Assembly: GCA_963704385.1 (NCBI GenBank)
Contig: OY969904.1
Location: 4,908,825-4,972,824 of the forward strand
Origin: an uncultured Solirubrobacterales bacterium
GTDB taxonomy: Bacteria; Actinomycetota; Thermoleophilia; Solirubrobacterales; Solirubrobacteraceae
Reading direction: 5' to 3'
DNA: 64,000 nucleotides
A program made the position numbers and the translations under genes. Below are positions 9,564-29,621 of this stretch, in pieces. The notes under the pieces are model-generated. The model was not told where the DNA came from. It did not search any database and saw only the letters and a list, made by a program, of their open reading frames with translations. Each line of letters begins with the position of its first letter. The stretch's first letter is position 1.

Positions 9564-10523
9564 CTAAAACACCGCCACCGGATTCCACGGCGAACCCGTC
9601 CCGCCGTGAATCAGAAGCGGCAGCCCCACGACCATGAACTCGTACCGCCCCTCCTCATCACACGCTGCGGCGAGGTCTTCAAACTGGAGGCTGTCGGCAA
9701 CGAACATTCCCATGGCGACGACCTGCAAGGGATGGATCGGGTATGTGATTCCGTCGACAACGCTCGGGACCGTCTCCCCGTCCCCGTCGGGGAGAAACGC
9801 GGCGATGCGCTTCTCGTGCATCCAGGGGACAGCATCGACGTGGATGCCGGCCTTGCCGTCGCCTTCAGGTCCGTTGTCCCAAGGCCCCCGCTCGAGACGC
9901 CTTCGGTGATGCCCCGTCCTGAGCACCAGGATGTCGCCCTCGCCCAATTCGACCTCTTCTGCAGCGGCGCACTGCTCTAGCTCGGCGCGAGTGACCGCAT
10001 CGCCCGGTTCAAGCCACTTGCAGCTCCGGAGGCGCGGGATGTCCAGCAGCACTCCGCGACCCACCAGTCCGTCGCGGTACACGGTCACATCCTGGGCCGT
10101 GGCGCCCGTGCTCTTCATCACTTCGTTCGCGTCACGCCCGTTATACGTCTTCCCGTCGTACGAGATGTGACAGAGGGCGTCCATGTGTGTGTGGGCGTCG
10201 CCGTGGCACCCCATCCCCAGGAAATCCAGGGCGAACCTGACCTTGCTTCCGTCGACGGGTACGTCATGCGCCTGGATGACGAACTGAATCGCAGGCTGTG
10301 GATTGTCAAGGCCGGCGACGGTATTGATCGGGATCCCCATCGAGACTCTCCGACCCGAGGTAACGAGCCGCGCGGCCGCCGCGACCTTGTCCGGCGTCAG
10401 GTAGTTCATCGTTCCGAGCTCGTCATCGGGGCCCCACCGGTCCCAGTTCTTGACCTCCTCGAAGATTCGCTCGAACTCTTCAACGCTCACCATGTCCCGC
10501 TTGGACTCTTCAACGCTGACCAT
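9564..10523 (-). CDS. Cyclase family protein (kynurenine formamidase-like metal hydrolase)
   Basis: NWDRWGPDDELGTMN, HGDAHTHMDALCH, GRGVLLDIP, GDILVLRTG, GTGSPWNP; real start may be second ATG at 10493. Confidence 0.9.
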   Translation of the reverse strand: MVSVEESKRDMVSVEEFERIFEEVKNWDRWGPDDELGTMNYLTPDKVAAAARLVTSGRRVSMGIPINTVAGLDNPQPAIQFVIQAHDVPVDGSKVRFALDFLGMGCHGDAHTHMDALCHISYDGKTYNGRDANEVMKSTGATAQDVTVYRDGLVGRGVLLDIPRLRSCKWLEPGDAVTRAELEQCAAAEEVELGEGDILVLRTGHHRRRLERGPWDNGPEGDGKAGIHVDAVPWMHEKRIAAFLPDGDGETVPSVVDGITYPIHPLQVVAMGMFVADSLQFEDLAAACDEEGRYEFMVVGLPLLIHGGTGSPWNPVAVF

Positions 10524-10529
10524 GTCGTT

Positions 10530-11684
10530 TCACGCTCCCATGCCCGCGGTCTGGCTGCCATAGCGAGCACACACCGGCCACACGTCGACGATCCGTGGGC
10601 CGTCGGCGACGTAATACATGTCGTAGAGGTTTACGGTCGTCGGGCCGTAGCCCGGCATCAGCTCGACGGTGTCGCCCACGTCGAGGTCGGCGGCCAGCTC
10701 GATGGCCGTGTGCTCTTCGTGGATGAAGTGCTCGCCGTGCTCAAAGCGGATCCTGCCCACGTCGCCCACCAGCTCCGGAACGGTGCGGTCGATACCGATC
10801 GACTTGCGTCCACAGTCGAGTACGGCCATCTGGCCGGTTCTCGAGACTACTGAGGAGAGCACCGTCAACGCCACCTCAAACCCTGGAACGAGATTTCGGT
10901 GGAACGCGTCCGTGAAGATGTACGAGCCCGCGTGAATCTCGGTTATGCGTGCGTTCGCTCCGGTGATATCCCAAGTCCCAAACCCGCCGGCGGCGATGAT
11001 CCCGGTGGGCAGCCCACGGCGCTCGAACTCGTCTGCAAGCTCCAGGAGTGCGGCGTTTGCTGCCAGCGTCTTTGTGACACGCAGCTCACGGTCGGGCTCC
11101 AACATGCAGTGCCCTTCGTATCCGAACAGCCCGGCTACCTCCAGGCCGGGCTGTCGCCGAATCAATTGCGCGAGGCTGACCGCCTCGTCGTGGCTTCGAA
11201 CGCCGGCGCGATGAAGACCGACGTCGAATTCGACCAGTACCGCTATCTCGCTCCCCGCGCGTTGGGCTGCGGCCGACAGCTCATAGGCGTTCGTTGCACT
11301 GTCCACGCTCACGAGTACGCGTGCGAGCGCCGCAATCCGCGCTAACTCGGCCGCTTTAACCGGACCCACCACCTGGTTTGCAACCAGAATGTCCGACAGC
11401 CCGGCGTCCACCATCACGCTCGCCTCCCAGACGGTCGCCGTGGTCAGCCCGATCGCGCCGGCTTCGATCTGCATGCGCCCCAGGATCGGGCTCTTGTGGA
11501 TCTTGGCATGGGGCCGCAGTGCTGCAGGCAGTCCGGCCATACGGTCGGCCATCTCGCGCAGGTTGCTTCTCACGCGAGGTAGATCCACGATCAGCGCCGG
11601 AGTGGGGGGCGCGTTGCGAGGGCCGCCAACGAAGCTGCGTGCGGCCTCGAGCCTGTCAGTCGTCAAGCCAGCCTCTGTTGCCAT
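10530..11684 (-). CDS. Fold-type III PLP enzyme (DSD1 / D-threonine aldolase family), copy 1
   Basis: TPALIVD, LRPHAKIHKS, GYEGH, TEIHAGSY, HEEH; GAGGAGG SD before ATG 11684. Confidence 0.9.
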   Translation of the reverse strand: MATEAGLTTDRLEAARSFVGGPRNAPPTPALIVDLPRVRSNLREMADRMAGLPAALRPHAKIHKSPILGRMQIEAGAIGLTTATVWEASVMVDAGLSDILVANQVVGPVKAAELARIAALARVLVSVDSATNAYELSAAAQRAGSEIAVLVEFDVGLHRAGVRSHDEAVSLAQLIRRQPGLEVAGLFGYEGHCMLEPDRELRVTKTLAANAALLELADEFERRGLPTGIIAAGGFGTWDITGANARITEIHAGSYIFTDAFHRNLVPGFEVALTVLSSVVSRTGQMAVLDCGRKSIGIDRTVPELVGDVGRIRFEHGEHFIHEEHTAIELAADLDVGDTVELMPGYGPTTVNLYDMYYVADGPRIVDVWPVCARYGSQTAGMGA

Positions 11685-12090
11685 CGACGTCCTCCTCGAA
11701 TTTGAATTCAGTGCACTCGATTGGCACTCCGAAACGGGGCGGGCCCGGCACGAACGCCGACGCTCGGCCACGACCGGAAGCAAAGTTCATCTGCGCGTCG
11801 TGTTCCTCGGCGAGGCCGCGCGCGTCGGCCTCCACATCGTCAACTCCGAAGCAGATATGGTGGAGCCCTTCACCCTGCTGCGCCAGGTGAGCGGCGACGG
11901 CGCTGTCGTCGTCCAGCGGCTCTACCAACTGGATGTACGCGTTGCCCGCATCGAGGTATGTCAGCCGCACATGCGGGCGAGCGAGCACTTCCGCCGAGAC
12001 GACCGATAGGCCCAGCTGTCCGCAGAAGTGCGAGAGCGCGCGCTCGGTGTCGGCCACGGCGACAGCCACGTGGTCCAGCCGCCGAATCAT
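11656..12090 (-). CDS. VOC family protein (methylmalonyl-CoA epimerase-like)
   Basis: LDHVAVAV, IQLVEP, GEGLHHICFGVDD. Confidence 0.85.
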   Translation of the reverse strand: MIRRLDHVAVAVADTERALSHFCGQLGLSVVSAEVLARPHVRLTYLDAGNAYIQLVEPLDDDSAVAAHLAQQGEGLHHICFGVDDVEADARGLAEEHDAQMNFASGRGRASAFVPGPPRFGVPIECTEFKFEEDVDGNRGWLDD

Positions 12091-12932
12091 GCTCGCCTCC
12101 CGTTGTAGAGCACAAGCTTGCGGGCCACCACGCCTCTCACCGCCTCCTGCTGACGCTCGTGCAGGTCAAAAAGACGGGAGCCATCCAGGGCCTCGTGCAT
12201 GTGCCGCTCGGAGGCAGCCAGATATGCCTCGCGCAGCTCGGTGTTGACGTTTACCTTCGCCACGCCGAGCGCGATGGCCTGACGGAGATCCTCATCTGGT
12301 ATCCCCGATGCTCCATGCAGGGAAAGAGGCACCGCGGTGGCATCGCGCACGGCCTCCAGCCGGACCCAGTCGAGCTGCGGCGGCTGCGCGTACGTCCCAT
12401 GGACGTTCCCGACGGAAACGGCCAGGCACGCGGCGCCGGTGTCTGCAGCGAAGCGCGCGGCCTCGTCGGGATCGGTGAGCTGCCCGGACTCCGCCCGCTC
12501 GGCCACGTCCTCGCCTCCTGCCACGTGTCCCAGCTCGGCCTCCACGTGAGCTCCATACCCACTCGCGAGGGCGACCGCGCGCGCAACGAGCTCACGGTTC
12601 TCGTCCAACGGCAACCTCGAGCCGTCGGCCATCAGAGCACCGCAGCCCAGTCGGAGGGCGCGCTCCATGAGCTCGAGGTCGCCAACGTGATCCAGCTCTA
12701 CGCAGCAGCGGACACCTGAGGTGTCGGCCGCCGCGACCAGCGCCGCCAGCAGCTGGTCGCCACCAGGCGCCGCGAACGCGCCCCTGCTCACGAGGAGCAT
12801 GACAGGCACCCCGGCTTCCCCCGCCGCGGCCAGCACCGCGGTTGCGGTCTCGAGGTCGTAGCTGGTGAAGGCGCCCAACGCGGCGCACCGCGAGCGGCGG
12901 TCCGTCAGGAGCGCGGGCAACGAGGCGATCAT
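12087..12932 (-). CDS. Class II fructose/tagatose-bisphosphate aldolase family
   Basis: ELDH, MADGS, VEAELGHVAGGED, LAVSVGNVHG, PLSLHGASG, KVNVNTELR. Confidence 0.9.
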   Translation of the reverse strand: MIASLPALLTDRRSRCAALGAFTSYDLETATAVLAAAGEAGVPVMLLVSRGAFAAPGGDQLLAALVAAADTSGVRCCVELDHVGDLELMERALRLGCGALMADGSRLPLDENRELVARAVALASGYGAHVEAELGHVAGGEDVAERAESGQLTDPDEAARFAADTGAACLAVSVGNVHGTYAQPPQLDWVRLEAVRDATAVPLSLHGASGIPDEDLRQAIALGVAKVNVNTELREAYLAASERHMHEALDGSRLFDLHERQQEAVRGVVARKLVLYNGRRA

Positions 12933-14197
12933 CGCTCCGGGGCGAGCATGTCGACGACGTCCGCCAGCGCCTCGTCGGCGCCGACGTTGCCGGGAAAGAC
13001 CACGTACGAGATCCGACTGCACTCAGGCGTCATGACGCTCCACAGCGAGATCCCCGGCGCGACCGGGCCGATCACATCCGCCTCCTGCGCGCCGAGGCCG
13101 TGGCTGAGATTGACTGCGGAGGTGATGCCCCCCTTCGACAGCACCACGTCGACATGGGTTCGAAGCTCGGCGACGACCCGCGCCAGGCGGCGGGCAAGCC
13201 GCTCGCCGTGCGCGAGGCCGCGATCGTCACGCTCGCGCGAAGTCGCCACGATCGCGAGGCCGCCCGACGAGATCAGCTCTGCTGCCGCCCGAACGGCTAC
13301 AGCGACTGCGCCATCAGAGCTAGCGGGCTCACGACTATCCAGCTCGACCAGGGTGTTTGGCCTGCGAGCGACCAGCCGTTGCAGCTGCCGGGTGGTGGTG
13401 CGGACATAGGACCCACAGACGACGAGCAAGCCGCGCTGTGCGCGCGGTGCCGCCACTACGTCGTGGGCCGTGGTGTGGGCGAGCCGGCCCACGAATGCCG
13501 GTGCGCTGCGAACGATGACTGGAGTTCCCGCGTCGATCGCCGAATGCAAGCCGGCGGCGATGATGTCGAGATCAGCGTCTGTGCAGGCATCGGGCGCGAA
13601 CACGGCGGGCGCGCCTCTCGCAACCTGGCCCAGCGCGGCGGCCACAGCTTCGGGTCCGCCGCCACGAAGCTCTTCCAGGTGAAGCTCGCAGCCGCGAGTT
13701 GCGGCGAAGAATCCCCCTGAGCGCTCCTGCGCCCAGTCGAGGAGGCGGGCAGTCCGGTAGGAGAAGGCGCCGTCGCGCGCGTACTCAGTCTCTTCGAGGG
13801 GAGTGGTCCGACCGTTGCGCTGCAAGAGGTGGACGCCAGCGACCGTGACTCGCCCGGCCGCGGGCAGCGCGGGCACGAGCATGAGCGCAGTGTCGCGACC
13901 CTCGAACGCAGCATCCCGCAGGCCGCGGTATTCCTCCAGGAGGTGCGCTCGCAGCGTGCTGTCACCGCGAAGCGCAACCTCTGCCTCGGGAAGGTTCGCG
14001 ACGGCGGCCTCCGACGCCTCGCGGACCACCCGGTAGGCGTTCTCGGGCTCGAGCGCCCGGCTATTCGTCAGAAGGTGAACGGCGCGGGGGCGGCGCTCAG
14101 CGACGCGGCGCAAGAGAGGCCCGCTCCATGACACGACCACCGGCACGTCGGCCTCCGCTTGCGCGCCCGTGGGGTCGTCGTCGATGACGGCCAGCAC
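12929..14197 (-). CDS. Four-carbon acid sugar kinase family (DUF1537/NBD)
   Basis: IDDDPTGAQ, LTNSRAL, RGDSTLRAH, VVLSKGGITS, FPGNVG; GTG start at 14197. Confidence 0.88.
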   Translation of the reverse strand: MLAVIDDDPTGAQAEADVPVVVSWSGPLLRRVAERRPRAVHLLTNSRALEPENAYRVVREASEAAVANLPEAEVALRGDSTLRAHLLEEYRGLRDAAFEGRDTALMLVPALPAAGRVTVAGVHLLQRNGRTTPLEETEYARDGAFSYRTARLLDWAQERSGGFFAATRGCELHLEELRGGGPEAVAAALGQVARGAPAVFAPDACTDADLDIIAAGLHSAIDAGTPVIVRSAPAFVGRLAHTTAHDVVAAPRAQRGLLVVCGSYVRTTTRQLQRLVARRPNTLVELDSREPASSDGAVAVAVRAAAELISSGGLAIVATSRERDDRGLAHGERLARRLARVVAELRTHVDVVLSKGGITSAVNLSHGLGAQEADVIGPVAPGISLWSVMTPECSRISYVVFPGNVGADEALADVVDMLAPER

Positions 14198-15213
14198 TAC
14201 TGCTCGTCGGCTGCCGCCAGCGCGGCGGCAACGTCGATGATCATGTCCTCTTGTCCGACGACCGCGTGCCGACGGCCCAACTCCACGATGATCTTTCGCG
14301 GATCTACCGAGAAGCGATCGCCCGCGCGGAGCGTATGCAGCAGGAAGCTCGCTGGTACGCCGACGTAGCCGAGGGTGCCGGTGAACCGGTCGATGTCGAT
14401 TGGGCCCGGCATGAGCTCCTTGCGCACGTAGCCGTCCGCCAGATCCTGTGCCCGCCACATGTCCACACCGGTCTCGATGCCGACACGGTCCAGGATGGCG
14501 AGCAATGGCTCCATCTGGCAGTTGCCCGCGCCGGCCCCCATGCCTGCGAGAGTGACGTCGACGATCGTCGCGCCCTCCTCCACGGCCGCGAAGCTGTTGG
14601 CAACGGCGAGTGAGAGGTTGTTGTGCGCGTGCATCCCGATCGCGATGTCGGACGGGAGCACGTCTCGAAGCGCATTCACCCGTGCCCGGACGTCATCCGG
14701 AAGCAGCGCGCCCGCCGAGTCGACGATGTAGACGGCCTGGCTGCCCGCGTCCGAGACGATTCGGCCGCCCTCCGCGAAGCGCTTGGCGTCCGCGACGCTC
14801 GCCATGTTGAGATGGCTGTGCGCCTCCATCCCCAGCTCGCGCGCCAGAGCCAGGTGCTGGATGCCGATGTCCGCCTCGGTACACACCGTCGAGACCCGCA
14901 CGACGGACGCGCCGGCCTCACGAGCGAGTTCGAGCTCGCGCTTGGTCCCGATCCCCGGCAGGAGCGCGACGGCGATGCGCGCCCGTTTTACCACCGCGGA
15001 CGCAGCGCCGATCAGCACCTCGTCAGGGTAGGCGGGAAAACCGTACTGCCGGGATGCGGCGCCTAGTCCGTCCCCGTGACCAACCGCCACCGCCCAGACC
15101 CCGGCCTCGTCGAGTCCCTTCGCGACGGTGGCCACCTGCTCGGGCGTGAACTGGTGCGCGACCGAGTGGGATCCGTCGCGCACGGTCGTGTCGATGATCC
15201 GGACCGTGGTCAT
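14197..15213 (-). CDS. dmpG: 4-hydroxy-2-oxovalerate aldolase
   Basis: [46 protein letters not shown]. Confidence 0.93.
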
Positions 15214-16091
15214 GCGGCGACCGTCCTGAGCGCGTGGCGCTCCGCGACGCGGATCGCGGCCGCCGTCATGATGTCGAGGTTGCCCGCGTACTCGGGCAGA
15301 TAGTCGCCGGCGCCGACGACCTCGAGCAGCACGGTGATCCGCCCATCGTCCACCAGCGGCGGCGCCGTAAGTCTGTACCCGGGGACGTACGCCGCAACCT
15401 CTTCAACCATTCGCTCGATCGCGGCTGAAGCCTCGTCCGGCTCGATACTCGCAGCGTCGAGGTAGACCGTGTTGCGCATCGCGATCGGGGGATCTGCGGG
15501 ATTTAGCAGGATGATCGCCTTGCCGCGGTCGGCCCGGCCCACGGATTCCAGACTTCGCGCGGTCGAGATCGTGAACTCGTCGATGTTCTGACGCGTCCCC
15601 GGCCCGGCCGAATAGGACGAGATCGTCGAGACGATCTCCGCATACTCCACCGGGGCTGTCCTCGAGACCGCGGCGACGATCGGGACGGTGGCCTGGGCTC
15701 CGCACGTCACGAGATTTATGTCGGCGGCGTCAAGGTTCTCTTCGAGATCGACTGCCGGGATCACCGCCGGTCCGAGCGCGGCCGGTGTCAGATCGACCGA
15801 CGCGATCCCGCGCTGGGCGAGGAGAGCGGCATGGGCCGAGTGCGCCCTCGCAGAGGTCGCGTCGAACGCGAGATCGATCCGCTCGACCTTCTTGAGGAGA
15901 TCGGGGAGCCCCTGGTCTGTCGTCGGATGACCTCGTCGCTTGGCAAGCCCCAAGCCGTCCGAATTCGGATCGATGCCCGCCACACCGGCGACCTCGAGCA
16001 ACGCGCTGCGCTCGACCTTGTACATGAGGTCTGTGCCGATGTTCCCTGAGCCGATGATCGCGACCCGCAGCTTGGATGTCGGCTCAGACAC
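15210..16091 (-). CDS. dmpF: Acetaldehyde dehydrogenase (acylating)
   Basis: [50 protein letters not shown]. Confidence 0.93.
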
Positions 16092-17382
16092 GGGAGTTGG
16101 TGTGGTTGAGTCGCCGTTGCCAACCCCGCAGCCCGCGAAAGCGATCCGCGCGAAACGGCTCAAGAATCTCTGGACGCGTCCCTGTGCTCACAAACTGAGC
16201 TATCTGCAGGCCGGCCGGCGCGCCGATCGAGACGCCCTGCATCGAACCGCCGGTGGCCAGGTAGACGTTTGCATAGCCCGGCGCGCGGTCCAAGACCGGG
16301 AGCCCGTCGGGTGCAATCGGTCGCATCCCGGCCCACTCGTGGTCGACCTCGGGGGTTGCCCACTCCACGAACGAGCGGCGCGCGCCTCGAATCGTGGCGT
16401 CGATACGCCGACGATCGAGCCTCGTGTTCAGGCCGCTGAACTCCATCGTGCCGCCGATGCGCATGCGATCGCCAAACGGTGTGCAACCAACGTGCACGTC
16501 GGCAAGCAAGATCGCGTGGCGGGGCACGACGGTCGGAGTGACGAAGAAGCTGTAGCCCTTCCCGGCCTGCATCGGGAGCGAGACTCCGAGCATCTTCGCC
16601 AGCGGCTGGGTCGCCGCCCCCGCAGCGACCACGTAATCCCGCGCGCTGAACTCGTCGGTGGCCGTGCGGACCGTGGCGACGTGGCCGTCGGCGGTGACGA
16701 AGTCGACCACCTCCGCCGCCTCGATGATCTCCACTCCCATTCGGCGCAGCGCGTCAGCCAGCCCGCCGGTATACGAGTCTGGTCGCACGTGCCAGTGCTG
16801 GCGGATTTCAAAGCCGGCCTGCACGATCGGCGCGAGTGCCGGCTCGAGCTCGTGCAACTCAGGTCCGGTGATGATGTCGTCTGGCAGCTCGTAGCCGTAG
16901 TCGCGCATCGGCTTCAGCTTCTCGAGTTCGTGGGCAGCCACGGCGGGTGTTTGTGTCGCGAAGACCATTCCCTGCCGGTAGAGCTCGAACTCAACGCCAT
17001 CCGCGGCCAGCTCCTCCACCAGCTCAAACACCCCCTGGCTGAGGCTGGCCCACGCCGCGAGGCCGTGGCGATAGGAGCGCTCATTGCAATAGGTGATGAA
17101 CTGGAGCAGCCACGGTGCAACCTGCGCGGAGCTGGCGGGGGCGAAATACAGCGGCGAATCGGCGTGGAACATCGCGCGCAGGCCATAGAGCGTGAGGCCG
17201 GGCTCCGGCAGCGGACCTGCCTGAGCCGGGCACAGCCAGCCGCCGCTCCCCCATGTGGCGCCGCTCCCGACCCGATTCGACTCGATCACAGTCACCTCGA
17301 AGTCAAGCCGCCGCAGGTAGTAGGCACAGCAGAGACCGGCCACCCCTGCGCCCACGACGATCACCCGGCGCTCCGAGGTCAC
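16084..17382 (-). CDS. FAD-dependent D-amino acid dehydrogenase/oxidase family (DadA-like)
   Basis: [31 protein letters not shown]; GTG 17382 overlaps RidA stop. Confidence 0.9.
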
Positions 17383-17795
17383 CCCGCCACCGCCGCCGTC
17401 ACCTGTATCTCCACCAGCAGCCCGGGAACCGGAAAGCCCGCCACGGTTGTGGTTCTCGCGGGGCGCGGCGGGAGGAAGGACTCGGCGAAAACCGCGTTCC
17501 AGGCCCCGAAGTCCGCCGAACGTGCCAGGTAGCACTCAACACGCAGCACATGAGCAGGGCTCGAGCCACCGTCCTCTAGCACGCGAAAAATGTCGAGCAG
17601 CACGGATTTCGCTTGCTGAACAAACTCCGCGGATCGGACTTGCAGCGTCGCCGGATCGACATCAGCCCGGCCCGATAGATACAGCGTCCCGTTCCACTCC
17701 GTGGCGTCCGCGATGAGTGGCTCGGCCGCTCCCATCGTCGACCCGGTGCCCAGCACCAGATGCCGTGGTCCATCGTCCAAGCGACCCTTACTCAT
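17379..17795 (-). CDS. RidA/Rid family imine/enamine deaminase
   Basis: LYLSG, DFGAWNAVFAESF..PRPARTT, LVEIQVTA (catalytic Arg present). Confidence 0.88.
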   Translation of the reverse strand: MSKGRLDDGPRHLVLGTGSTMGAAEPLIADATEWNGTLYLSGRADVDPATLQVRSAEFVQQAKSVLLDIFRVLEDGGSSPAHVLRVECYLARSADFGAWNAVFAESFLPPRPARTTTVAGFPVPGLLVEIQVTAAVAG

Positions 17796-17810
17796 GACCT
17801 AGCGGCGTAA

Positions 17811-17823
17811 GGTCATCAGACCA
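17811..17823. promoter_or_regulatory. Candidate FadR-family operator
   Basis: GGTCATCAGACCA resembles PdhR/LldR-type sites; between divergent ridA and regulator. Confidence 0.45.
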
Positions 17824-17916: not shown

Positions 17917-18648
17917 ATGGCGCTCACGCAGCGGACTGAAGTCCGCCCCGAGCTGTCGCTCAAGCGGGCGTCGCGTCAAAAACTCGCCGAGACCGTGGCG
18001 CAGCAGCTGCTCGAGGCGATCCACGATCTGCCGCCTGGGACGCGACTGCCGCCGGAGCGCGAGCTTACGCGGGAGCTCGGCGTGGGCCGCTCCACGGTCA
18101 GGGAGGCGCTCAACGGTCTAGCGCTGATGGGCACAGTCGACATCCGCCACGGTCAAGGCGTGTTTGTGGCAGACCGCAGCAGCCAGGAGGCGCGCACGCC
18201 GGACGCGCTCGAGCGCGCATTGATGAAGGGCGTCACTCGCGAATTTCTTGAGGCACGACTAGTGGTCGAGGTGGAGATAGCACGATTTGCAGCCGTGCGG
18301 CGCACAGACGCCGATCTCGAACAGATCGCAGAGACGATCGAGGACCTCAAACAGGCGCTGGACGCGCCCACAAGGGACGCCCTCAAACCGGCGACGGGGT
18401 TCAACCTTGCGGTAGCGGAGGCAGCGCATAACGAGGTCCTCGCCGGCGTCATGCGACCATTCATAGAGTTGATGATCGAGCGCGCGCCTGCTCTGTACGA
18501 ACAGGCCGACTTCCGGCGCTGGGATATCGAGGACCACACGCGGATATACGAGGCAATCCGCGACGCCGACCCGGAGCTCGCAGCCGAGCGTATGCGGGAG
18601 CACATCATCACGATCGGCGAGCAGTACAAGCGGGCGGGCGAGGCCTAG
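17917..18648 (+). CDS. FadR/GntR family regulator (FCD domain)
   Basis: RLPPERELTRELGVGRSTVREAL, EARLVVEVEIA, DHTRIYEAI. Confidence 0.93.
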   Translation: MALTQRTEVRPELSLKRASRQKLAETVAQQLLEAIHDLPPGTRLPPERELTRELGVGRSTVREALNGLALMGTVDIRHGQGVFVADRSSQEARTPDALERALMKGVTREFLEARLVVEVEIARFAAVRRTDADLEQIAETIEDLKQALDAPTRDALKPATGFNLAVAEAAHNEVLAGVMRPFIELMIERAPALYEQADFRRWDIEDHTRIYEAIRDADPELAAERMREHIITIGEQYKRAGEA

Positions 18649-18716: not shown

Positions 18717-19472
18717 TCACCCGCCCGCGGCCTCAGGAAGGCCGAGCACCTGCCCCCCGTCGACGTGGATGATGTTCCCAGTCGTCCAGGCCGTCTCGGG
18801 TGCAACGAGCAGCCACACCCATGCGGCGATGTCGTCGGACTGTCCCATCCGCCCGAGTGGGAGGCGACGTGCGAGGTCGGCGTACGTGGCGTCGAGGTCG
18901 TCGCTGTAGGTCGCGTGGATTGGCGTGTCGACCGGTCCTGGCGCGATGCAGTTGACCCGGATGCGGTCGGCGGCGAGCTCGTACGCCCAGGCGCGAGTTA
19001 GGTATTCCAGGGCCGCCTTTGAGGAGCCATAGAGCATGCCGCCGGGCTTTACGATCGAACCGACCGAGGAGCTGATGTTCACAACCGCCGCCTCCGGGGA
19101 CTGGCGCAGCGCCGGGAGCGCCGCGGCGAGCAGGAAGAACGGACCGGCGACGTTGACCGCGTAGTGCCGCTCGAACGTCGCTCGGTCGAATGACTCAAGA
19201 GGCCCGTTCCTGATCACGGCCGCGTTGTTGATCAGCACGTCGATGCGCCCGAACGCGCCCAGCGCTTCGTCGACGATCCGACGCGGCGCGGCCGGGTCGC
19301 CGACGTCGGCGGCAAGCGCGAGAGTCCGACCACCGAGTTCCGCGCGCATGGTCTCGAGCGGCTCTTTACGGCGGCCCACGACTACGACCTCAAGACCCTT
19401 CCTGGACAGCAACCGCGCTGCGCCCGCCCCGAGGCCCGTGCCGCCACCGGTCACGATCGCGACTCGGCTCAT
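18717..19472 (-). CDS. SDR oxidoreductase
   Basis: TGGGTGLG, NNAA, YGSSKAA, NCIAPG. Confidence 0.92.
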   Translation of the reverse strand: MSRVAIVTGGGTGLGAGAARLLSRKGLEVVVVGRRKEPLETMRAELGGRTLALAADVGDPAAPRRIVDEALGAFGRIDVLINNAAVIRNGPLESFDRATFERHYAVNVAGPFFLLAAALPALRQSPEAAVVNISSSVGSIVKPGGMLYGSSKAALEYLTRAWAYELAADRIRVNCIAPGPVDTPIHATYSDDLDATYADLARRLPLGRMGQSDDIAAWVWLLVAPETAWTTGNIIHVDGGQVLGLPEAAGG

Positions 19473-19547
19473 GAAGTCATACCGATGTCGCCATTCCGAC
19501 GCCGAGGCTGGGGCTGCGCTCGGTGAGCTCTCGCCCGGTCGTTTGCA

Positions 19548-20435
19548 TCAGGCGGGAACCGCCGTGCGCGAGAGCTCCTGGAAGAGCTCATACGCATCAC
19601 CCGCCGGTGCGCCCTCATGCACTACCTCAGCGACCGCCCGGATCATCGCGGCGGGCGATTCCGACTGGAAAATGTTGCGGCCCATATCGACGCCCGCTGC
19701 GCCTTCCTGGACGGCCCGGTACGCCATCTGGAGAGCATCGAGTTCCGGCAGCTTCTTGCCCCCGGCCATGACGACTGGCACCGGGCAGCCGGCGGTGACT
19801 TGCTCAAACCCTTCCTCGACGTAGTACGTCTTGACCATCTGGGCGCCCAGCTCTGCGCAGATCCGCGTCGCCAGTCCGAGGTAGCGCGCGTCGCGTGTCA
19901 GCTCCTTGCCGACCGCCGTCACGCCGAGAACCGGGATGCCGTACCGGTAGCCCGCGTCGACGAGCCGTGTCATGTTCTCGATCGACTGCGTCTCGTGCTC
20001 GCCGCCGACAAACACCTGGACTGCGACGCTGTGGACGTTCATGCGCGCGGCGTCCTCCATGTCGACGGCGATGCGCTCGTTCGAGAGTTCTCTGAGGATG
20101 CTCGGGCCGCCGCTGCCCCGCATGACGATCCCGCCGCGAAAGGTCGCCGGTATCGTCGAGCGCAGCATTCCGCGCGTCAACATCAGCGCGTCGGCATATG
20201 GCGCGATCGGCACGATGTTCAGGTCGACGCGTTCGAGCCCCGTCGTGGGCCCCTGGAAGTAGCCGTGGTCGATCGCAAGCATCACGGTGCGGCCGGTGTC
20301 TGGCCGAAAGATGCGGGCGAGACGGTTTTTCATCCCCCAGTCGTAGGCACCGGATCCCTTTAGGAAGAAACGCTGGTCGGGAGCGGGGATGTCCGTGTGG
20401 AAGTTTTTCTCCTGCCTGTCGTCTGCCTCGGGCAT
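19548..20435 (-). CDS. lsrF: LsrF (3-hydroxy-5-phosphonooxypentane-2,4-dione thiolase)
   Basis: [57 protein letters not shown] match LsrF throughout. Confidence 0.92.
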
Positions 20436-20454
20436 CGCGGTTCCTTTCGTTGTT

Positions 20455-22017
20455 CTAGGTGCCGGCCGCACGCCAAAGCGGGCGGGCGAGACCGGCTTCG
20501 GAGATCTCGAGGCTGCGCGCGTAGAGCTCGAGCCAGCGGTCGTACAGTTCGCGGTAGGCCGCACTTGCGCTGGGATCCGGCTGGCAGGAGCGCTCGAAGC
20601 GCACGAGTCGTTCGGCCGCCTCACCCGCGTCGCGATATAGCCCAGCGCCAACGCCCGCGTAGATCGCCGCGCCGAGCGCGGTGGATTCCTTCACCTCCGG
20701 GATCCGGATCGGGATGGCGAGCGCGTCCGCGACGATCTGCGGCCATAGTGCGCCCTTTGCCGCACCGCCGATGAGTACCGCTTCGTCGACGTCTATCCCG
20801 GCCACCTCCTGCACTATCTCCAGATGGCCGCGTGTGACATACGCTGCGCTCTCTTCGATCGCCCGGAAGCACTCGACCCGACCGGCGCTTGAGGGATTGC
20901 CAACGTCGAAGCCGAGGAAGCCCGGCGAGGCGTGCACCCAGCGGCTCGCCCGCATGACGTTCGAGAAGATTCCGAAGACGCCGTTTGAGCCCGGCGCGAC
21001 GTCGCGCGCCTTGCGCTCCATGATCGCGTACACATCCTCGCCGGTCGACAGCGCCTCGAGCGCCTCAAGCTCACAGAACGCGTCACGGAACCAGCGCATA
21101 ACGATCCCGCAGTAGAACCCGATTCCCTCCATCATCCACCGCTCAGGGACCGTGTGACAGAGCGTTCGCAAACGTGCTTCGGGGTCGATCAGCGGCTCGT
21201 CAAGAACGACGGTGGCCTGCCAAAAGCTGCCGCCGACGATCGTCACCCGACCGGGCTGCGTAACGCCGATGCCGAGCAGGCCAAGCTGCGTGTCCGCGCC
21301 GCCCGTCACCACGGGCGTCCCCTCGCTGAGCCCTGTCGCGGCCGCAGCCTCGGCGGTGACCGTGCCGACGACGGTGCCGGCCTCGACGATCGGGGGAAAC
21401 ACCGACCGCCCGAGGCCACACAGCTCGAGCACACGGTCTGACCAGTCGCGAGCCGCCAGGTCGAACAGACCCGAGCTCGAACCGAGCGACGGATCAGTGA
21501 CGAAGGCGCCAGAGAGCTTGGCCAGGATCCAGTCGCCGAGCATCCCGACGTGTGCAACGGCAGCAAAGATCTCCGGTTGATGGCGGGCGATCCACAGAAA
21601 TCGCGCCGGCGCCGTGATCGCCACCCAGTCTCCAGCCAGGTCGTAAATCTCCTGCGCGGCGCCCGATCGGACGAGTTCATCGGCCTCCTCGCTCGCGCGC
21701 GAGTCGGCGTTCGGGCACGCCCATATCTCGCGTCCGCTCGCGTCGTAGAGGACCATTCCTTCGCGCATGCTGGTCGCGCTCACCGCCTTGACTGCATCGC
21801 TGGGTCGCCCAGATTCCTCGAGCGCATCACGAACGCATTCGCAAATCAGGCGCCAGTTCGTGTCGGTGTCGAACACCTGCGAGCCCGGGATTCCCGGATG
21901 CGGAGGATGGGTGTACTCGCGCTGGCAGATTGCGAGCTGCGCGCCGTCGGGAGTGAATATGACGGCTCGACAGCTTCCCGTGCCGGCGTCAATCGCGAGT
22001 AGCAACTCGTCGGTCAT
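20455..22017 (-). CDS. lsrK: LsrK-like autoinducer-2 (DPD) kinase, FGGY family
   Basis: [48 protein letters not shown], terminal LWRAAG match LsrK features. Confidence 0.88.
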
Positions 22018-23054
22018 GCGGCAGCCTGAGCCCGATCGAAGACGTTGACCAAGGGCTCGCCCGCTGCGAAGCGCTCGATTTCGGCCGCGATCATTTCAGC
22101 TCCCTGACGGAGGGTCTCGTGGGTTGCGCCGCCCACATGCGGGGTTAAGACGACGTTTTCGTGGCGCAGCAGGCGATGCCGTCCTTGTTCCGTTGTCGGC
22201 CGCAAGACATCGAGGGCCGCTCCGGCGAGACGGCCCGACGTCAGCGCGGCATCCAGCCCATCCTCGTCCACCAGCGTCTCGCGCGCCGTGTTGATGAGAC
22301 ACGCGCCTTGCTTCATCGCCGACAGCGCGGCGGCGTCGATGAGGTTCTCGTTTTGGGGCGTGGCGCGGGCGTGCAGCGAGACAAAGTCGCTGGAAGCGAG
22401 CAGCTCATCGAGCGTCCGCACTTCGCTCACGCCGTCGGTGTCGCCGACGGCAACAAAGGGATCGTAAGCGAGCACGGTCATCCCGAACGAAACGGCACGC
22501 TGCGCGACGCGCCGACCAATCTGTCCGTACCCGATGATTCCGAGCACGTGGCGGCGGAGATCGCTTCCGAGGAATCTCGCGCCCTCCCAAGTGTCCTCCA
22601 CCCGATTACCTTCCTGAAGGAAGCGCTGCGCTTTCGGGAGGCGGCGGGCGAGCATGACGAGAAACGCGAGCGTCAGGTCCGCGACCGCCTCGGCATTCTT
22701 GCCCGGAGTGTTGACCAACGGGAGGCCGCGGATGCTCACCGCGTCGACGTCCACGTTTACCGGCCCGCCACGCGCACAGCAGACCAGCCGGAGTTTCGGT
22801 GAGGCATCGAGCACCTGATCGGTTACCGGAGCGCCCTGCACGACGAGGACGTCAACGCCTGCCATCCACTCGACGAGCTCAGACGGAGAGCCCTGATACT
22901 CCCGCAGCTTCCGTTCGGATGGGGTGGCTGGAGTGAACGGACGAGCCGAATCGACTTGGACGATTTCGACGTCGTGCGCGCGTTCGAGGTCGGCGAATGC
23001 CTCTGCGAAGTATCGCGGAGGCATATAGGTATCGCCGACGGCGAGAATCCTCAA
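22014..23054 (-). CDS. D-2-hydroxyacid dehydrogenase family NAD(P) oxidoreductase
   Basis: RGGPVNVD, TPGKNAEAVAD, GYGQIG, LINTARETLVDE, TPHVGGAT. Confidence 0.9.
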   Translation of the reverse strand: MRILAVGDTYMPPRYFAEAFADLERAHDVEIVQVDSARPFTPATPSERKLREYQGSPSELVEWMAGVDVLVVQGAPVTDQVLDASPKLRLVCCARGGPVNVDVDAVSIRGLPLVNTPGKNAEAVADLTLAFLVMLARRLPKAQRFLQEGNRVEDTWEGARFLGSDLRRHVLGIIGYGQIGRRVAQRAVSFGMTVLAYDPFVAVGDTDGVSEVRTLDELLASSDFVSLHARATPQNENLIDAAALSAMKQGACLINTARETLVDEDGLDAALTSGRLAGAALDVLRPTTEQGRHRLLRHENVVLTPHVGGATHETLRQGAEMIAAEIERFAAGEPLVNVFDRAQAAA

Positions 23055-23072
23055 CGGGACACTCTCGTTCGG

Positions 23073-23576
23073 CTAGGGGTAGACGCGGATCGGGGTGAGA
23101 TCAACGGCATGCCCCGTGCCCGATTCGAAGATGACCTTGAGCAGCGGCTCCGTGTCCAGGTAGTAGAAGTGGATGGTCTCGCCGATGCGGCCCTCCATCA
23201 GGATCCCGGCGCCCATGTCTTCGAATCTCCGCCTCGTCGCCTCGGACTCGGCGGGGGTCGGCCTCATGACCGCGATGTGGTGCAGCCCCTCGCCGTGCGA
23301 ATCCAACCACTCCTTGTAGATGCTCGGCCCATCCTCCGGCTGCAGCAGCTCGACAACGATCTCGCCAACGTGCGTCTCGGCTCCGATCATCGTGAAATCA
23401 GCCGGCCGTCCATGCAGGTACGTGTCGTGGAGGGCTGGAGGCTTGTGCTCATATACATTCCAGGGCCCCCATCCGAGAGCTCGGTGGTAACGCTCGAGAG
23501 CTTGGTCGATGTCTTTCACGACGATCGCGATCTGGCTGATCGGGAGCGGTTCCGGCGGTGGCGCGACCGCGCTCAT
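23073..23576 (-). CDS. VOC family protein
   Basis: QIAIVVKD, ELLQP..GPSIYKEWL..HGEGLHHIAV. Confidence 0.85.
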   Translation of the reverse strand: MSAVAPPPEPLPISQIAIVVKDIDQALERYHRALGWGPWNVYEHKPPALHDTYLHGRPADFTMIGAETHVGEIVVELLQPEDGPSIYKEWLDSHGEGLHHIAVMRPTPAESEATRRRFEDMGAGILMEGRIGETIHFYYLDTEPLLKVIFESGTGHAVDLTPIRVYP

Positions 23577-23703
23577 ACTCTGTGTGTCCCCACCCGGTAT
23601 CTGCACTTCTCACCTCCTGTTTGTGCGAGTGAACCCACGTTCACAAGTGTCGTCTGGGTAGTCACCTTGTCTCGTCTGGTTGCTGGGGAGAAACGCTCGG
23701 CGG

Positions 23704-24498
23704 TTACGCCCCGATATTGGTTGGGGGCGGTAGCCCGACCGACAGTGCTCCGTCGACGACAAGCAATTCGCCCGTGAGATAGGACGCGTCTTCTGAGCAC
23801 ATCCAGAGGATCGCGCGCGCAATCTCGGCAGGCTCGGCGAAACGGCCTAATGGAATCCGTTCGAGGAATACCTTCGACTGCACCGGGTCATTGATCACGA
23901 ACGCCGCGAGACGGGTGTTGATGATCCCGGGCGCGATTGCGTTCACGCGGATGCCGTGCTGCGCAAGATCGAGCGCAGCGGTTTGCATGACCGCCACCTG
24001 GGCCGACTTCGAAGTGTTGTAGGCGAGCCCGCCGCCCTCCGGTTGAAAGGCATTTGTCGACGCGGTGATCGCGATCGCGCCCCGCGTTCCCTGCCGCACC
24101 ATGGCGCGGGCGGCCTCCTGAGCGAGGTACAACGTGCCGTTGAGGTTGACCTCCATGATGCGCTGCCATTGCTCATCGGGAAATTCCAAGAAGGGCACGA
24201 ACTCAGCGATCCCGGCGACCTGGACGGCAACGTCGAGATGGCCGAAGCGCTCGACCGCAAGTTCGATGGCTCGGACGACGTCCTCACGACGGCTGACATC
24301 TCCGACGACAGCTTCGACGCGTCCGCTGGTTCGTCGGATACTCTCCAGTGCGCTGTTCAGGGCGTCTGGCTCTATGTCGAGGAGCACCACCCCCGCGCCC
24401 TCGCCGACGAACCCCTCCGCAACGGCCCGGCCCAATCCCTGGGCTGCCCCTGTGACAACCACGCCCTTTTCCGCAAATCGGGCTAACGACATCGTCAT
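23704..24498 (-). CDS. SDR oxidoreductase
   Basis: TGAAQGLG, YNTSKSA, NAIAPG; ATGA overlap with upstream gene. Confidence 0.92.
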   Translation of the reverse strand: MTMSLARFAEKGVVVTGAAQGLGRAVAEGFVGEGAGVVLLDIEPDALNSALESIRRTSGRVEAVVGDVSRREDVVRAIELAVERFGHLDVAVQVAGIAEFVPFLEFPDEQWQRIMEVNLNGTLYLAQEAARAMVRQGTRGAIAITASTNAFQPEGGGLAYNTSKSAQVAVMQTAALDLAQHGIRVNAIAPGIINTRLAAFVINDPVQSKVFLERIPLGRFAEPAEIARAILWMCSEDASYLTGELLVVDGALSVGLPPPTNIGA

Positions 24499-25655: not shown

Positions 25656-25943
25656 CGCTGCGAACCCCTAGATGGCCGAGCGGAGACGCCCACGCCTGCG
25701 ATGTCTCGTCGGACGAGCGACTTGCTTCCCTTGTCTGGCCACACAGTCTCGGGCGCCTGCCGTGCCTCAGCCCGGGACGAATGGCTCGCTCCGAGCGGGA
25801 ACCGTGGGCGCATACGTGGCGGGAAGAACGATTCCGGCCACCGGCAACCATTCACCGACAGTCGCTGGCCGTTGGTGCCTTTCATGCGGTCGTGCCTGTG
25901 TTCGCTGGAGAATCTGTAAGCGCTGCGCGAGTATACATCGTCC

Positions 25944-26042: not shown

Positions 26043-26063
26043 AATTTCTAGTCGGTAGGACCC

Positions 26064-26879
26064 ATGCTTCCGAAGCCCGCGAAGCTGCCGCCGACACAAA
26101 TCGACCGTCAGTCGCCTGTTCCCTACTACTTTCAGCTTTCGGAGCTGCTTGAGCAGGAGATCATGTCCGGCCGGTGGGAGCCCGGAACTCGACTTTCTTC
26201 CGAACCGGAGATCTCGAGACAACTGGGCCTGTCGCGGACGACGATCCGCCAGGCTCTGGGCCGACTGGAACAGAGAGGTCTGGTCCAGCGACGGAAGGGA
26301 CAAGGCACGTTCGTGGCGGAGTCGGAGCCCAGGTCTTGGCTCCTGCAGTCATCGGGCGGGTTCTTCGAGGAGGAGTTTGGTCGGATGGGACGGCTCGTCA
26401 CCTCGGTTGTTCTGCGCTCCACCGCCCGGGGACCGCTGCCACCGTGGGCGACGTCAGCGCTCGGACTTGCTGGGCCCCGGGGCGGGACGCTCGAGCGAGT
26501 CCGCGCGGTCGATGGCTTGGTCGCGATGTACGTCATAAACCACCTCTCGCCCGGACTCGCCGAGTTGGTACTTCCGCTGGCCGATCCGAATGAGTCGCTC
26601 TATCAGCGATTGAAGGACCGCGCAGACACCGAGACGGCCGGCGGTCGCCGCATGCTGGAGGCCGTTCGTGCTGAGGAGCGACTCGCGAGGCTTTTAGAGC
26701 TCCCAGTCGGCGCGCCATTGGTCTTCGTCGAGTCGGTGAGTTGGGACCGCAATCTGCGGCCCTTTGACTGCTATCAGGCGTGGCTACGCAGCGACCGAAT
26801 GCGGATCGATGTCTCAGTCTCTTCGTCACCGTTCACGCCTCAGTTCTCGACCCCTGAAATCGCTGGTGGTGTCACATGA
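26064..26879 (+). CDS. GntR/HutC family regulator (UTRA domain)
   Basis: PVPYYFQL, LSRTTIRQAL, RRKGQGTFV, C-terminal UTRA (PFDCYQAWLRSDR). Confidence 0.92.
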   Translation: MLPKPAKLPPTQIDRQSPVPYYFQLSELLEQEIMSGRWEPGTRLSSEPEISRQLGLSRTTIRQALGRLEQRGLVQRRKGQGTFVAESEPRSWLLQSSGGFFEEEFGRMGRLVTSVVLRSTARGPLPPWATSALGLAGPRGGTLERVRAVDGLVAMYVINHLSPGLAELVLPLADPNESLYQRLKDRADTETAGGRRMLEAVRAEERLARLLELPVGAPLVFVESVSWDRNLRPFDCYQAWLRSDRMRIDVSVSSSPFTPQFSTPEIAGGVT

Positions 26880-29580: not shown

Positions 29581-29621
29581 CCGGCTCTTAATGCGCCTGG
29601 AGCACGATCTGCCACGAGCTA

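Follow-up and report, generated by a model that had tools for sequence, protein, structure and literature searches.

The window analysed here, a 64,000-nucleotide stretch of contig OY969904.1 from an uncultured Solirubrobacterales bacterium, contains a run of nine consecutive genes on the minus strand that form a real, conserved unit of uncultured soil actinobacteria (Table 1). In transcription order they encode a Rid-family deaminase, a flavoenzyme resembling the D-amino acid dehydrogenase DadA, the aldehyde dehydrogenase/aldolase pair DmpF and DmpG, a DUF1537 kinase, a protein of the F_bP_aldolase family, a VOC protein, a pyridoxal phosphate (PLP) enzyme of the D-threonine aldolase (DTA)/D-serine dehydratase (DSD) family and a ‘cyclase’-family hydrolase. 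Our preferred reading, which we hold tentatively, is that soil Thermoleophilia use these genes to break down a hydroxylated D-α-amino acid resembling a sugar acid, the deamination of which would feed two outlets, one through 2-oxo-tetronate and the other through a DmpG/DmpF pair adapted to polar substrates. A literature search returned no description of such a gene cluster. The public sequencing runs that contain this stretch are soil metagenomes.

Domains were assigned by Pfam and NCBIfam profile scans of the window proteins, with bit scores compared with the NCBIfam cutoffs. The scans confirm the coupled nine-gene operon and the domains that an earlier note on this DNA, made from the letters alone, had described at 17795–9564. 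Inspection of each junction reveals overlapping start and stop codons at seven of the eight. The first is a GTGA, in which the Rid stop codon overlaps the GTG start of the flavoenzyme gene, followed by an 8-nt overlap, an ATGA and a TAGTG; the kinase and aldolase-family genes are joined by ATGA, as is the next pair, and a 29-nt overlap then precedes the only gap, of 6 nt. This gap, between the DTA-like and cyclase genes, widens to 36 nt if the latter starts at 10493. With the refined starts, the gene lengths agree with the calls in the closest genome, a Solirubrobacteraceae metagenome-assembled genome (MAG) whose proteins are 78–95% identical. A terminator-like hairpin lies at 9593–9572. The window is ~67% GC, and wrong-strand open reading frames (ORFs) of up to 530 residues shadow the real genes (e.g. 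15940–17532 and 12869–13720, both on the plus strand); a simple codon-position GC score ranked two wrong-strand ORFs above the true kinase gene. Owing to such mis-calls, gene content was taken from tblastn and from Pfam-annotated loci.

At least 15 independent loci, from genomes or metagenomes, share this gene order at 45–76% amino-acid identity, and the arrangement is therefore not due to chance. The kinase was aligned with its homologues, one genome per GTDB species was scanned, and all window proteins were scored against the 80 loci returned; a metagenome scan that started from the flavoenzyme added further contigs, and gene look-ups added some loci (L003, L005, L087 and L092). The 169 loci fetched in all are labelled with L-numbers. 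In class A, RidA–flavoenzyme–DmpF–DmpG–kinase–aldolase–VOC is accompanied by a DTA-like gene (L007, L009, L027, L031, L035, L037, L038, L043, the four looked-up loci and about 10 contigs from the flavoenzyme-seeded scan). Identities to the window are 45–58% for the kinase, 59–65% for the flavoenzyme and 64–76% for DmpG, and every host is either a member of the Thermoleophilia or an unclassified actinobacterial MAG. About 20 loci, most of them from Gaiellales, make up class B; they keep the regulator, VOC, kinase and aldolase genes and lack the flavoenzyme and DmpFG; sugar ABC transporters, FAA-family hydrolases, epimerase-family dehydrogenases and enolase-superfamily dehydratases are also found there. 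Class C is a single locus, L091, with an APC permease, a regulator and the order SDR–SDR–RidA–flavoenzyme–DmpF–DmpG–VOC–DTA–cyclase (SDR, short-chain dehydrogenase/reductase), without kinase or aldolase. From the compositions of classes B and C, the kinase–aldolase pair is a separable cassette, placed in the window operon between DmpG and VOC.

One or two FCD regulators occupy the position equivalent to that of the divergent regulator in the Pfam-annotated relatives. Over the Rid start codon lies the perfect palindrome TGACCT-N9-AGGTCA, which occurs once in the window against 0.03 occurrences expected by chance. It is absent from all 169 fetched loci and is thus only a weak operator candidate. 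The transporters of the relatives are of amino-acid or peptide/opine type. APC permeases of the kind found in the window adjoin the DTA-like gene in L031, L035, L037, L038, L091 and L122, and the binding proteins of the ABC systems match generic nickel, glutathione, dipeptide and opine models alone, all below cutoff. In four Gaiellales loci of class B (L023, L019, L013 and L026), the kinase–aldolase–VOC cassette lies among other acid-sugar genes, including those for a 650-residue D-apionate-lactonase-like protein (222 bits, cutoff 750) and an L-rhamnonate dehydratase equivalog (638 bits, cutoff 393), as well as FAA-family hydrolases and ApbA-type reductases. These genes suggest a second acid-sugar pathway, likewise uncharacterised, that leads into this cassette.

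As the earlier note had proposed, the flavoenzyme and its Rid partner very probably convert a D-amino acid to a 2-oxo acid, which modules of the same operon then process. The best NCBIfam match of the flavoenzyme, labelled ‘DadA-like’ in that note, is the D-amino acid dehydrogenase PRK00711, with a score of 188 bits that is below the cutoff of 383. Its best matches in the PDB are glycine oxidases (68 bits). It has 843 homologues at E ≤ 1e-30, mostly in soil metagenomes. The Rid protein scores 56 bits to TIGR00004 (cutoff 106) and, as read from the translation, contains the motif PARTTTV, the arginine of which we take to be the residue required by RidA. The coupling of the two genes is constant across the related loci. 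The simplest reading is that the 2-oxo acids made by this pair enter either of the two cleavage modules encoded downstream.

Gene neighbourhoods point to the kinase as one destination. In three divergent metagenome contigs (L122, L123 and L137), where the flavoenzyme is ~51% identical to that of the window, a DUF1537 kinase gene follows immediately after the flavoenzyme gene, and in L026 RidA and the flavoenzyme gene lie a few genes from a kinase–aldolase–DenD cluster without DmpFG. The product of the flavoenzyme therefore probably feeds the kinase, which implies a substrate of the 4-hydroxythreonine type. These neighbourhoods tie the flavoenzyme to the kinase and speak against the proposal of the earlier note that the kinase and aldolase form a side branch; they would instead be a main outlet. 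Two other arrangements are seen: DmpF and DmpG follow the flavoenzyme without any kinase in L091, and in L122 they adjoin the DTA-like gene in the opposite operon. The kinase of the three divergent contigs is only 36% identical to that of the window, and no F_bP_aldolase gene comes next within the DNA available. A sugar cluster in L123, with a levoglucosan-dehydrogenase-like GFO protein and three xylose-isomerase-fold proteins, was considered as context and set aside, since it is convergent and may be unrelated; its genes include some resembling hydroxypyruvate/2-oxo-tetronate isomerases.

For the kinase and the aldolase-family protein, we propose roles in a described pathway. The three-step L-threonate/D-erythronate pathway of Arthrobacter sp. 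ZBG10 (Guo et al. 2024), as described in PMC12540250 and PMC12994016, employs a DUF1537 kinase (2-OtnK) that phosphorylates 2-oxo-tetronate downstream of the dehydrogenases LtnD or DenD, and an F_bP_aldolase-domain enzyme (2-OtnC) that converts 2-oxo-tetronate-4-phosphate to dihydroxyacetone phosphate (DHAP) and CO2 without the isomerase OtnI. The same sources describe Arabidopsis LTD as a fusion of the same domain set (PMC12540250, PMC12994016). In the window, a two-domain DUF1537 kinase is directly followed by the ATGA-coupled F_bP_aldolase gene, and the operon has no OtnI isomerase gene. The kinase matches DtnK at only 88 bits and 3-OtnK at 29, and the aldolase-family protein, labelled ‘FBA-II’ in the earlier note, falls below every NCBIfam FBA and TBA equivalog cutoff. 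The two genes are paired in about 34 loci. In L026, the pair (kinase 50% and aldolase 54% identical to those of the window) is followed by a DenD equivalog (NF043036, 385 bits, cutoff 325), and in L078 (35% and 48%) by an LtnD-like gene (296 bits, cutoff 350). Because of this architecture, the low scores to the alternative families and these neighbours, the pair is proposed to be the 2-OtnK/2-OtnC of a tetronate pathway, an assignment that would map half of the operon to a named route where the earlier note could name none. The window operon itself encodes neither LtnD nor DenD, and we infer that the flavoenzyme would play their part on a D-configured 2-amino-3,4-dihydroxybutanoate. An alignment with AgaY and YdjI shows that the Asp-His, Glu, His, His catalytic set of class II aldolases is intact in the aldolase-family protein, so its sequence alone does not separate a decarboxylase from a true aldolase.

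The second outlet consists of a canonical dehydrogenase and a divergent aldolase. DmpF carries the AcetDehyd-dimer domain, scores 343 bits to PDB entry 7Z3S and keeps the catalytic cysteine motif TCGAQAT. DmpG, with an HMGL-like TIM barrel and a DmpG_comm domain, scores 298 bits to 4JN6 (HsaF) and 1NVM (DmpG) and, when aligned to both, keeps R17, D18, H21, H200 and H202. Its substrate pocket differs. Leu88 is replaced by Ala and Tyr291 by Pro, both in the window protein and in every one of the 12 orthologues from classes A and C that were aligned across this region. In the aligned orthologues Gly138-Phe-Leu-Met141 becomes Ser-His-Leu-Asn (F139H, M141N), and all but one of them have Arg at the position of Phe60 or Phe64; N61Q, H115V and H203N are further clade-wide changes. 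In BphI, the equivalents of the first two residues (Leu87 and Tyr290) flank C4 of the substrate, with Tyr290 excluding the 4R enantiomer, and the L87A substitution lowers the specificity for acetaldehyde 32-fold (PMC3962088). Judged from the fold, the other changed residues would sit in strand-end motifs on the catalytic face of the TIM barrel. The residue pattern predicts a pocket that is larger and polar or cationic, which would favour a hydroxylated or carboxylated aldehyde moiety and disfavour 4-hydroxy-2-oxovalerate.

This pattern bears directly on the substrate put forward in the earlier note, a hydrophobic γ-hydroxy D-amino acid of the 4-hydroxynorvaline type that would be oxidised to 4-hydroxy-2-oxovalerate and converted to pyruvate and acetyl-CoA, with the kinase and aldolase on a minor side branch. 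DmpG and DmpF do score above the NCBIfam cutoffs for 4-hydroxy-2-oxovalerate aldolase and acetaldehyde dehydrogenase, and the RidA–flavoenzyme–DmpF–DmpG order is conserved even in the kinase-less L091. The residues that in BphI accommodate the C4 methyl group and select the 4S configuration are, however, Ala and Pro in every aligned member, and neighbouring motif positions carry Arg, His, Asn and Gln instead of Phe, Phe, Met and Asn. Together with accessory genes of sugar type and a kinase pair tightly linked to the flavoenzyme, this makes a 4-hydroxynorvaline route quite unlikely. Two further substrates were considered and judged unlikely. A hydroxyproline route starting from a cis-4-hydroxy-D-proline dehydrogenase would yield cationic aminoacetaldehyde, ill-suited to the new arginine of the pocket, and a proline-racemase-type epimerase is absent. 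Homoserine or its lactone is unlikely since the pocket is enlarged and not narrowed, and L-homoserine is a central metabolite.

It is highly improbable that DmpF and DmpG belong to an ordinary lower meta-cleavage or steroid pathway with its hydratase and upstream genes at another place in the genome and with the rest of the cluster as unrelated neighbours. Both proteins pass their equivalog cutoffs, as such a pathway would have it. Their genes are nevertheless translationally coupled to RidA and the flavoenzyme gene upstream and to the kinase gene downstream, the synteny holds in the at least 15 loci given above, and the substrate pocket is remodelled. Pfam scans of gene-like ORFs picked by codon composition across the window, with a tblastn check, found neither a PF01557 (FAA_hydrolase/MhpD-type) hydratase nor a two-domain extradiol dioxygenase, in agreement with the earlier note, which had reported no 2-oxopent-4-enoate hydratase and no ring-cleavage dioxygenase. 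The seven Pfam-annotated relatives also lack a PF01557 hydratase. With the coupling and the synteny, these results uphold the non-aromatic route argued for in that note. The sole aromatic-looking genes of the window encode a FAD_binding_3 monooxygenase (51411) and an α/β hydrolase (52508), both within 51411–53674, and a cupin protein (57849–58952), all on the plus strand; they lie 34–40 kb from the operon and have no linkage to it.

The sequence itself shows gene content, coupling, conservation, family membership and residue patterns, from which the substrates and the order of steps are deduced. On our preferred reading, an amino-acid-type transporter (the APC permease in the window, peptide/opine-type ABC systems in relatives) would import the substrate, the flavoenzyme would oxidise the D-amino acid to a 2-imino acid, and the Rid protein would hydrolyse this to the 2-oxo acid and ammonium. 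In the first outlet, 2-amino-3,4-dihydroxybutanoate, a 4-hydroxythreonine stereoisomer, would give rise to 2-oxo-tetronate, which the DUF1537 kinase would phosphorylate at C4 and the F_bP_aldolase-family enzyme would then convert to DHAP and CO2. In the second, the divergent DmpG would split 4-hydroxy 2-oxo acids with a 3-methylene group into pyruvate and a polar aldehyde, hydroxylated or carboxylated and distinct from acetaldehyde, and DmpF would convert this aldehyde to an acyl-CoA. The remaining proteins would be accessory: the DTA-like enzyme may supply or interconvert the D-isomer or deaminate by elimination, an SDR with a lactonase or cyclase-family partner and the VOC protein may trim, open or epimerise the substrate, and the FCD regulator would control the operon. 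A sugar-like substrate is suggested by the accessory SDRs of the glucose-1-dehydrogenase subfamily, the SGL lactonases and a ConA-fold protein, taken together with transporters of amino-acid or peptide/opine type.

Several observations weigh against this reading. The flavoenzyme lies below the DadA cutoff and has glycine oxidases as its nearest solved relatives, so that glycine or a secondary amine is a possible substrate. The aldolase-family protein has an intact aldolase catalytic set and could be a genuine aldolase whose substrate is a longer keto-acid phosphate. The arrangement in L122, where the DTA-like gene is with DmpG–DmpF and the flavoenzyme gene with the kinase, fits a PLP enzyme that feeds DmpG. 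The closest MAG, which is ~88% identical, has lost the VOC gene, of which a 44-residue remnant is left between the aldolase-family and DTA-like genes (12108–12242 in L001/L007), and this step may be dispensable. Two outlets in one operon have no evident reason. The literature search found no paper describing catabolism of 4-hydroxythreonine, which is not known to be abundant as a substrate in soil.

The DTA-like protein departs from its named relatives in its active site. Its best match in the PDB is the D-threonine aldolase AxDTA (4V15, 181 bits), and BhcC is also among its closest solved relatives. It keeps the equivalents of the PLP lysine Lys59, Arg157 and Tyr187, and has Tyr, Pro and Leu in place of His347, Asp349 and His193, respectively. 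All known D-threonine aldolases conserve His347 and Asp349, which bind Mn, and His193, which acts as the base (PMC4401734). The motif PGY(G/S/A)PTT is found in every class A and C orthologue, the position of His193 having been read in the window protein only. The His/Cys metal site of DSD-type dehydratases is missing from the window protein as well, and persists as His-x-Cys in the dehydratase-type paralogs of L037, L038 and L040. Because the metal serves to bind the β-hydroxyl group, a classical retro-aldol reaction or a metal-assisted elimination is unlikely. By its residues the protein represents a separate subfamily, and the label ‘DSD1’ of the earlier note has to be corrected, since the closest relatives are D-threonine aldolases whose catalytic residues the protein lacks. 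With low confidence we suggest a racemase or epimerase, by analogy with DadX, or else an atypical deaminase. A second DTA-like paralog is encoded at 24495–25667 on the minus strand and is followed by an SDR gene; it is 47% identical, and its variant motif PGYTPGT keeps the Tyr and Pro.

In relatives the DTA-like gene is followed by an SDR gene and then by a gene for an SGL lactonase or a cyclase-family hydrolase, an order that suggests a step of hemiacetal oxidation and lactone opening. The SGL/gluconolactonase-family gene of the relatives stands at the position of the PF04199 protein, which we propose to be a lactone or amide hydrolase. The VOC protein resembles methylmalonyl-CoA epimerase (80 bits, cutoff 115), and its gene accompanies the kinase–aldolase pair in class B and the flavoenzyme and DmpFG in L091; the protein may epimerise or isomerise a 2-oxo-3-hydroxy acid.

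The main rival, which we consider unlikely, is a route from a 2-amino-2-deoxy-aldonate such as D-glucosaminate, either imported or made by a glucose-1-dehydrogenase-like SDR and a lactonase. In one version the DTA-like enzyme would act by elimination to leave a 2-keto-3-deoxy-aldonate for DmpG and DmpF; in the other it would carry out a retro-aldol cleavage to glycine and a tetrose, which would be passed by way of tetronate to 2-oxo-tetronate for the kinase and decarboxylase, while the flavoenzyme and Rid protein turned glycine into glyoxylate. DTA-like, SDR and SGL/cyclase genes make up a conserved triad, and the SDRs pass the glucose-1-dehydrogenase subfamily cutoff. The relationship of the flavoenzyme to glycine oxidases would fit, as would the L122 arrangement, in which the DTA-like gene is contiguous with DmpG–DmpF and the flavoenzyme gene is paired with the kinase gene; a polar DmpG pocket would suit glyceraldehyde-type products, and the 2-hydroxyacid dehydrogenase encoded nearby could make 2-oxo-tetronate. 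Both versions, however, depend on an enzyme that has lost both Mn ligands, the His193 base and the dehydratase His/Cys site. The retro-aldol version provides DmpG with no substrate, the elimination version assigns the flavoenzyme no role, and a flavoenzyme that oxidises glycine only does not explain the adjacency of its gene to that of the kinase.

The operon lies at one end of a wider island that spans 9.5–33 kb of the window and contains two adjacent operons (Table 1). The first of these encodes an LsrK equivalog (NF008187, 619.5 bits, cutoff 528) and an LsrF equivalog (NF006081, 484 bits, cutoff 297), corresponding to an autoinducer-2 kinase and a 3-hydroxy-5-phosphonooxypentane-2,4-dione thiolase. 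LsrK and LsrF convert the 4,5-dihydroxy-2,3-pentanedione skeleton to DHAP and acetyl-CoA, and by our own reasoning this chemistry may be viewed as the methyl-ketone counterpart of the conversion of 2-oxo-tetronate to DHAP and CO2. Their genes (19548–22017, minus strand) are flanked by those for a VOC protein, a 2-hydroxyacid dehydrogenase and SDRs, and no Lsr ABC transporter or LsrG is seen with them, which suggests a use in catabolism rather than in signal quenching. The second VOC gene and those for the 2-hydroxyacid dehydrogenase, LsrK, LsrF and SDR adjoin the operon in L001/L007, and the first four do so in L035. The island SDRs pass the glucose-1-dehydrogenase subfamily cutoff.

The second adjacent operon, on the plus strand, is linked to the main operon by the conserved protein f25, since homologues of f25 are encoded inside class A operons. 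This protein of ~230 residues is 54–58% identical to gene products in L005, L009, L027, L035, L037, L038 and L092 (at 12615–13316 in L005, 12624–13319 in L009 and 15801–16490 in L092), where the genes adjoin a VOC, transporter or DTA-like gene. Nearly all of its 1467 homologues are labelled hypothetical, and it has no Pfam match. Its confident AlphaFold2 (AF2) model (pLDDT 86) suggests a generic ConA/GH16/galectin-like jelly roll (TM 0.4–0.64, 8–15% identity), and the fold search gave no specific enzyme. The operon opens, at 26052–29580, with genes for a GntR/UTRA regulator, an APC permease and a psicose-3-epimerase-like TIM barrel, in the gene order of Escherichia coli frlR/frlA/frlC, for fructoselysine uptake and epimerisation; no FrlB deglycase or FrlD kinase accompanies them. 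An IS110-family transposase gene follows right after the island and may mark a mobile or rearranged boundary.

Such island features point to a sugar-derived, nitrogen-containing substrate, and there is a slim chance that the operon serves the catabolism of a sugar–amino acid conjugate (Amadori, Heyns or opine-like), with the flavoenzyme acting as an amadoriase or opine oxidase that cleaves the C–N bond, the Rid protein hydrolysing the imine, and the sugar-derived dicarbonyls or keto acids being consumed by the kinase/aldolase, DmpG/DmpF and LsrK/LsrF. The peptide/opine-type ABC transporters of the relatives, the resemblance to frlR–frlA–frlC, the ConA-fold protein and the LsrK/LsrF equivalogs, which handle a 1-deoxy-diketopentose and are adjacent in the window, L001/L007 and L035, are all consistent with this. 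The flavoenzyme, however, scores best to D-amino acid dehydrogenase models and has no amadoriase or opine oxidase among its matches, no FrlC-like or GFO gene comes within 10 kb of the operon in any other class A locus, and a deglycase or kinase of FrlB or FrlD type is lacking. Broader than our preferred reading, and rather doubtful, is the view that the operon is the core of a 23-kb island encoding an undescribed soil pathway for amino-sugar-acid or sugar–amino acid compounds, in which one deamination feeds three parallel modules for phosphorylation, isomerisation and cleavage. These may be the polar-substrate DmpG/DmpF clade, giving pyruvate and an acyl-CoA; a 2-OtnK/2-OtnC pair acting on amino-acid-derived 2-oxo-tetronate to give DHAP and CO2; and a catabolic LsrK/LsrF pair giving DHAP and acetyl-CoA. 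The pathway may also take in two uncharacterised families, the metal-less DTA-like PLP enzyme and the ConA-fold protein with its ~1500 homologues and no Pfam family.

Table 1. Features of the operon and its surroundings, in window coordinates.
Feature	Position	Strand	Assignment basis
Rid-family imine/enamine deaminase, first gene of the operon	17379–17795	−	PF01042, 62 bits
DadA-like amine/D-amino acid dehydrogenase, dependent on flavin adenine dinucleotide (FAD)	16084–17382	−	PF01266 (DAO), 212 bits
DmpF-type CoA-acylating aldehyde dehydrogenase	15210–16091	−	TIGR03215, 411 bits (cutoff 282)
DmpG-type class II pyruvate aldolase, divergent clade with predicted polar pocket	14197–15213	−	TIGR03217, 421 bits (cutoff 286)
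DUF1537 acid-sugar kinase, proposed 2-OtnK type	12929–14197	−	SBD_N + NBD_C
F_bP_aldolase-family protein, proposed 2-OtnC type	12087–12932	−	PF01116, 239 bits
Single-domain VOC/glyoxalase-fold protein	11656–12090	−	Glyoxalase_4
Fold-type III PLP enzyme, DTA/DSD family without metal site	10530–11684	−	Ala_racemase_N + D-ser_dehydrat
‘Cyclase’-family metal hydrolase, last gene of the operon	9564–10523 (start perhaps 10493)	−	PF04199, 66 bits
Palindrome TGACCT-N9-AGGTCA over the Rid start codon, weak candidate operator	17795–17815		Single occurrence in the window
Divergent GntR/FCD (FadR-subfamily) regulator	17917–18648	+	GntR + FCD domains
Adjacent operon (transcription order): second DTA-like paralog, SDR, VOC, 2-hydroxyacid dehydrogenase, LsrK, LsrF, SDR	18717–25667	−	Pfam, NCBIfam
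Adjacent operon: GntR/UTRA regulator, APC permease, psicose-3-epimerase/FrlC-like TIM barrel, f25, GFO/IDH/MocA oxidoreductase, SDR	26052–32815	+	
f25, conserved protein	29769–30461	+	Within the operon in relatives
IS110-family transposase, right after the island	33163–34347	+	DEDD_Tnp_IS110 + Transposase_20

Thermoleophilia (Solirubrobacterales and Gaiellales) are among the most abundant and least cultured soil actinobacteria, and their diet is largely unknown. The operon and its variants recur in many soil metagenomes. If our preferred reading is right, the operon would show how hydroxylated D-amino acids or amino-sugar acids can be broken down in soil, and would let an amino acid, in place of a sugar acid, enter the recently described 2-oxo-tetronate route. 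It would also place a DmpG/DmpF clade that acts on polar aldehydes outside aromatic and steroid degradation, which would be of interest for biocatalysis with polyhydroxylated 2-oxo acids. Annotation pipelines would then mislabel at least two of the genes, as ‘4-hydroxy-2-oxovalerate aldolase’ and ‘D-threonine aldolase/DSD1’; PGAP-style rules would still give the divergent DmpG the first of these names.

Compared with known systems, no categorically new chemistry is involved; what is undescribed is the way the parts are combined, the DmpG clade with its remodelled pocket, the DTA-like clade without a metal site and the ConA-fold family, which has no name. A Rid protein, DadA and a racemase form an established catabolic unit in Pseudomonas, DadA/DadY/DadX (PMC9714295). 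That locus and the operon described here each unite a FAD-dependent enzyme, DadA there and a DadA-like protein here, with a Rid deaminase and a PLP enzyme of the alanine racemase fold. In the window operon, however, the Rid gene comes first, the PLP enzyme belongs to the DTA/DSD branch and not to Alr/DadX, and the products would enter dedicated C–C cleavage modules rather than lead straight to pyruvate. With D-threonine aldolase, DSD1 and BhcC the PLP enzyme shares the two-domain fold, the PLP lysine, the carboxylate-binding Arg and the stacking Tyr; it differs from them in the loss of the metal ligands and the His193 base, and the dehydratase His/Cys site is lost too.

DmpG and DmpF have the architecture of the DmpG/DmpF, BphI/BphJ and HsaF/HsaG complexes, including the DmpG_comm domain, the metal ligands, Arg17 and His21, the DmpF cysteine and the F-then-G gene order. 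Unlike the genes of the meta-cleavage and steroid complexes, theirs have no hydratase or ring-cleavage context and are coupled to the gene of a putative amino acid dehydrogenase, and DmpG differs from its meta-cleavage counterparts by Ala at Leu88, Pro at Tyr291 and the strand-end Arg, His, Asn and Gln residues. The kinase, aldolase-family protein and DmpF together recall the lower pathway of myo-inositol degradation, in which a keto-acid sugar is phosphorylated by the kinase IolC and split by the class II aldolase IolJ to DHAP and an aldehyde, which the CoA-acylating dehydrogenase IolA converts to a CoA ester. This likeness is in the logic of phosphorylation, F_bP_aldolase cleavage and CoA-ester formation, whereas the kinase and dehydrogenase families are different and no equivalogs of IolB, IolD or IolE are present; the GFO and TIM-barrel neighbours in the window match Iol models weakly.

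The closest parallel for the kinase and aldolase-family protein is the three-step tetronate pathway, to which they are likened by architecture and by its published description: both have a DUF1537 kinase (SBD_N + NBD_C) gene coupled to a following F_bP_aldolase gene, and both do without OtnI. The difference is at the entry, where the place of the tetronate 2-dehydrogenase, dependent on nicotinamide adenine dinucleotide (NAD), is taken here by a FAD-dependent amine dehydrogenase and a Rid protein. With these two proteins in the position of LtnD or DenD, the feedstock would be the 2-amino analogue and not the 2-hydroxy acid.

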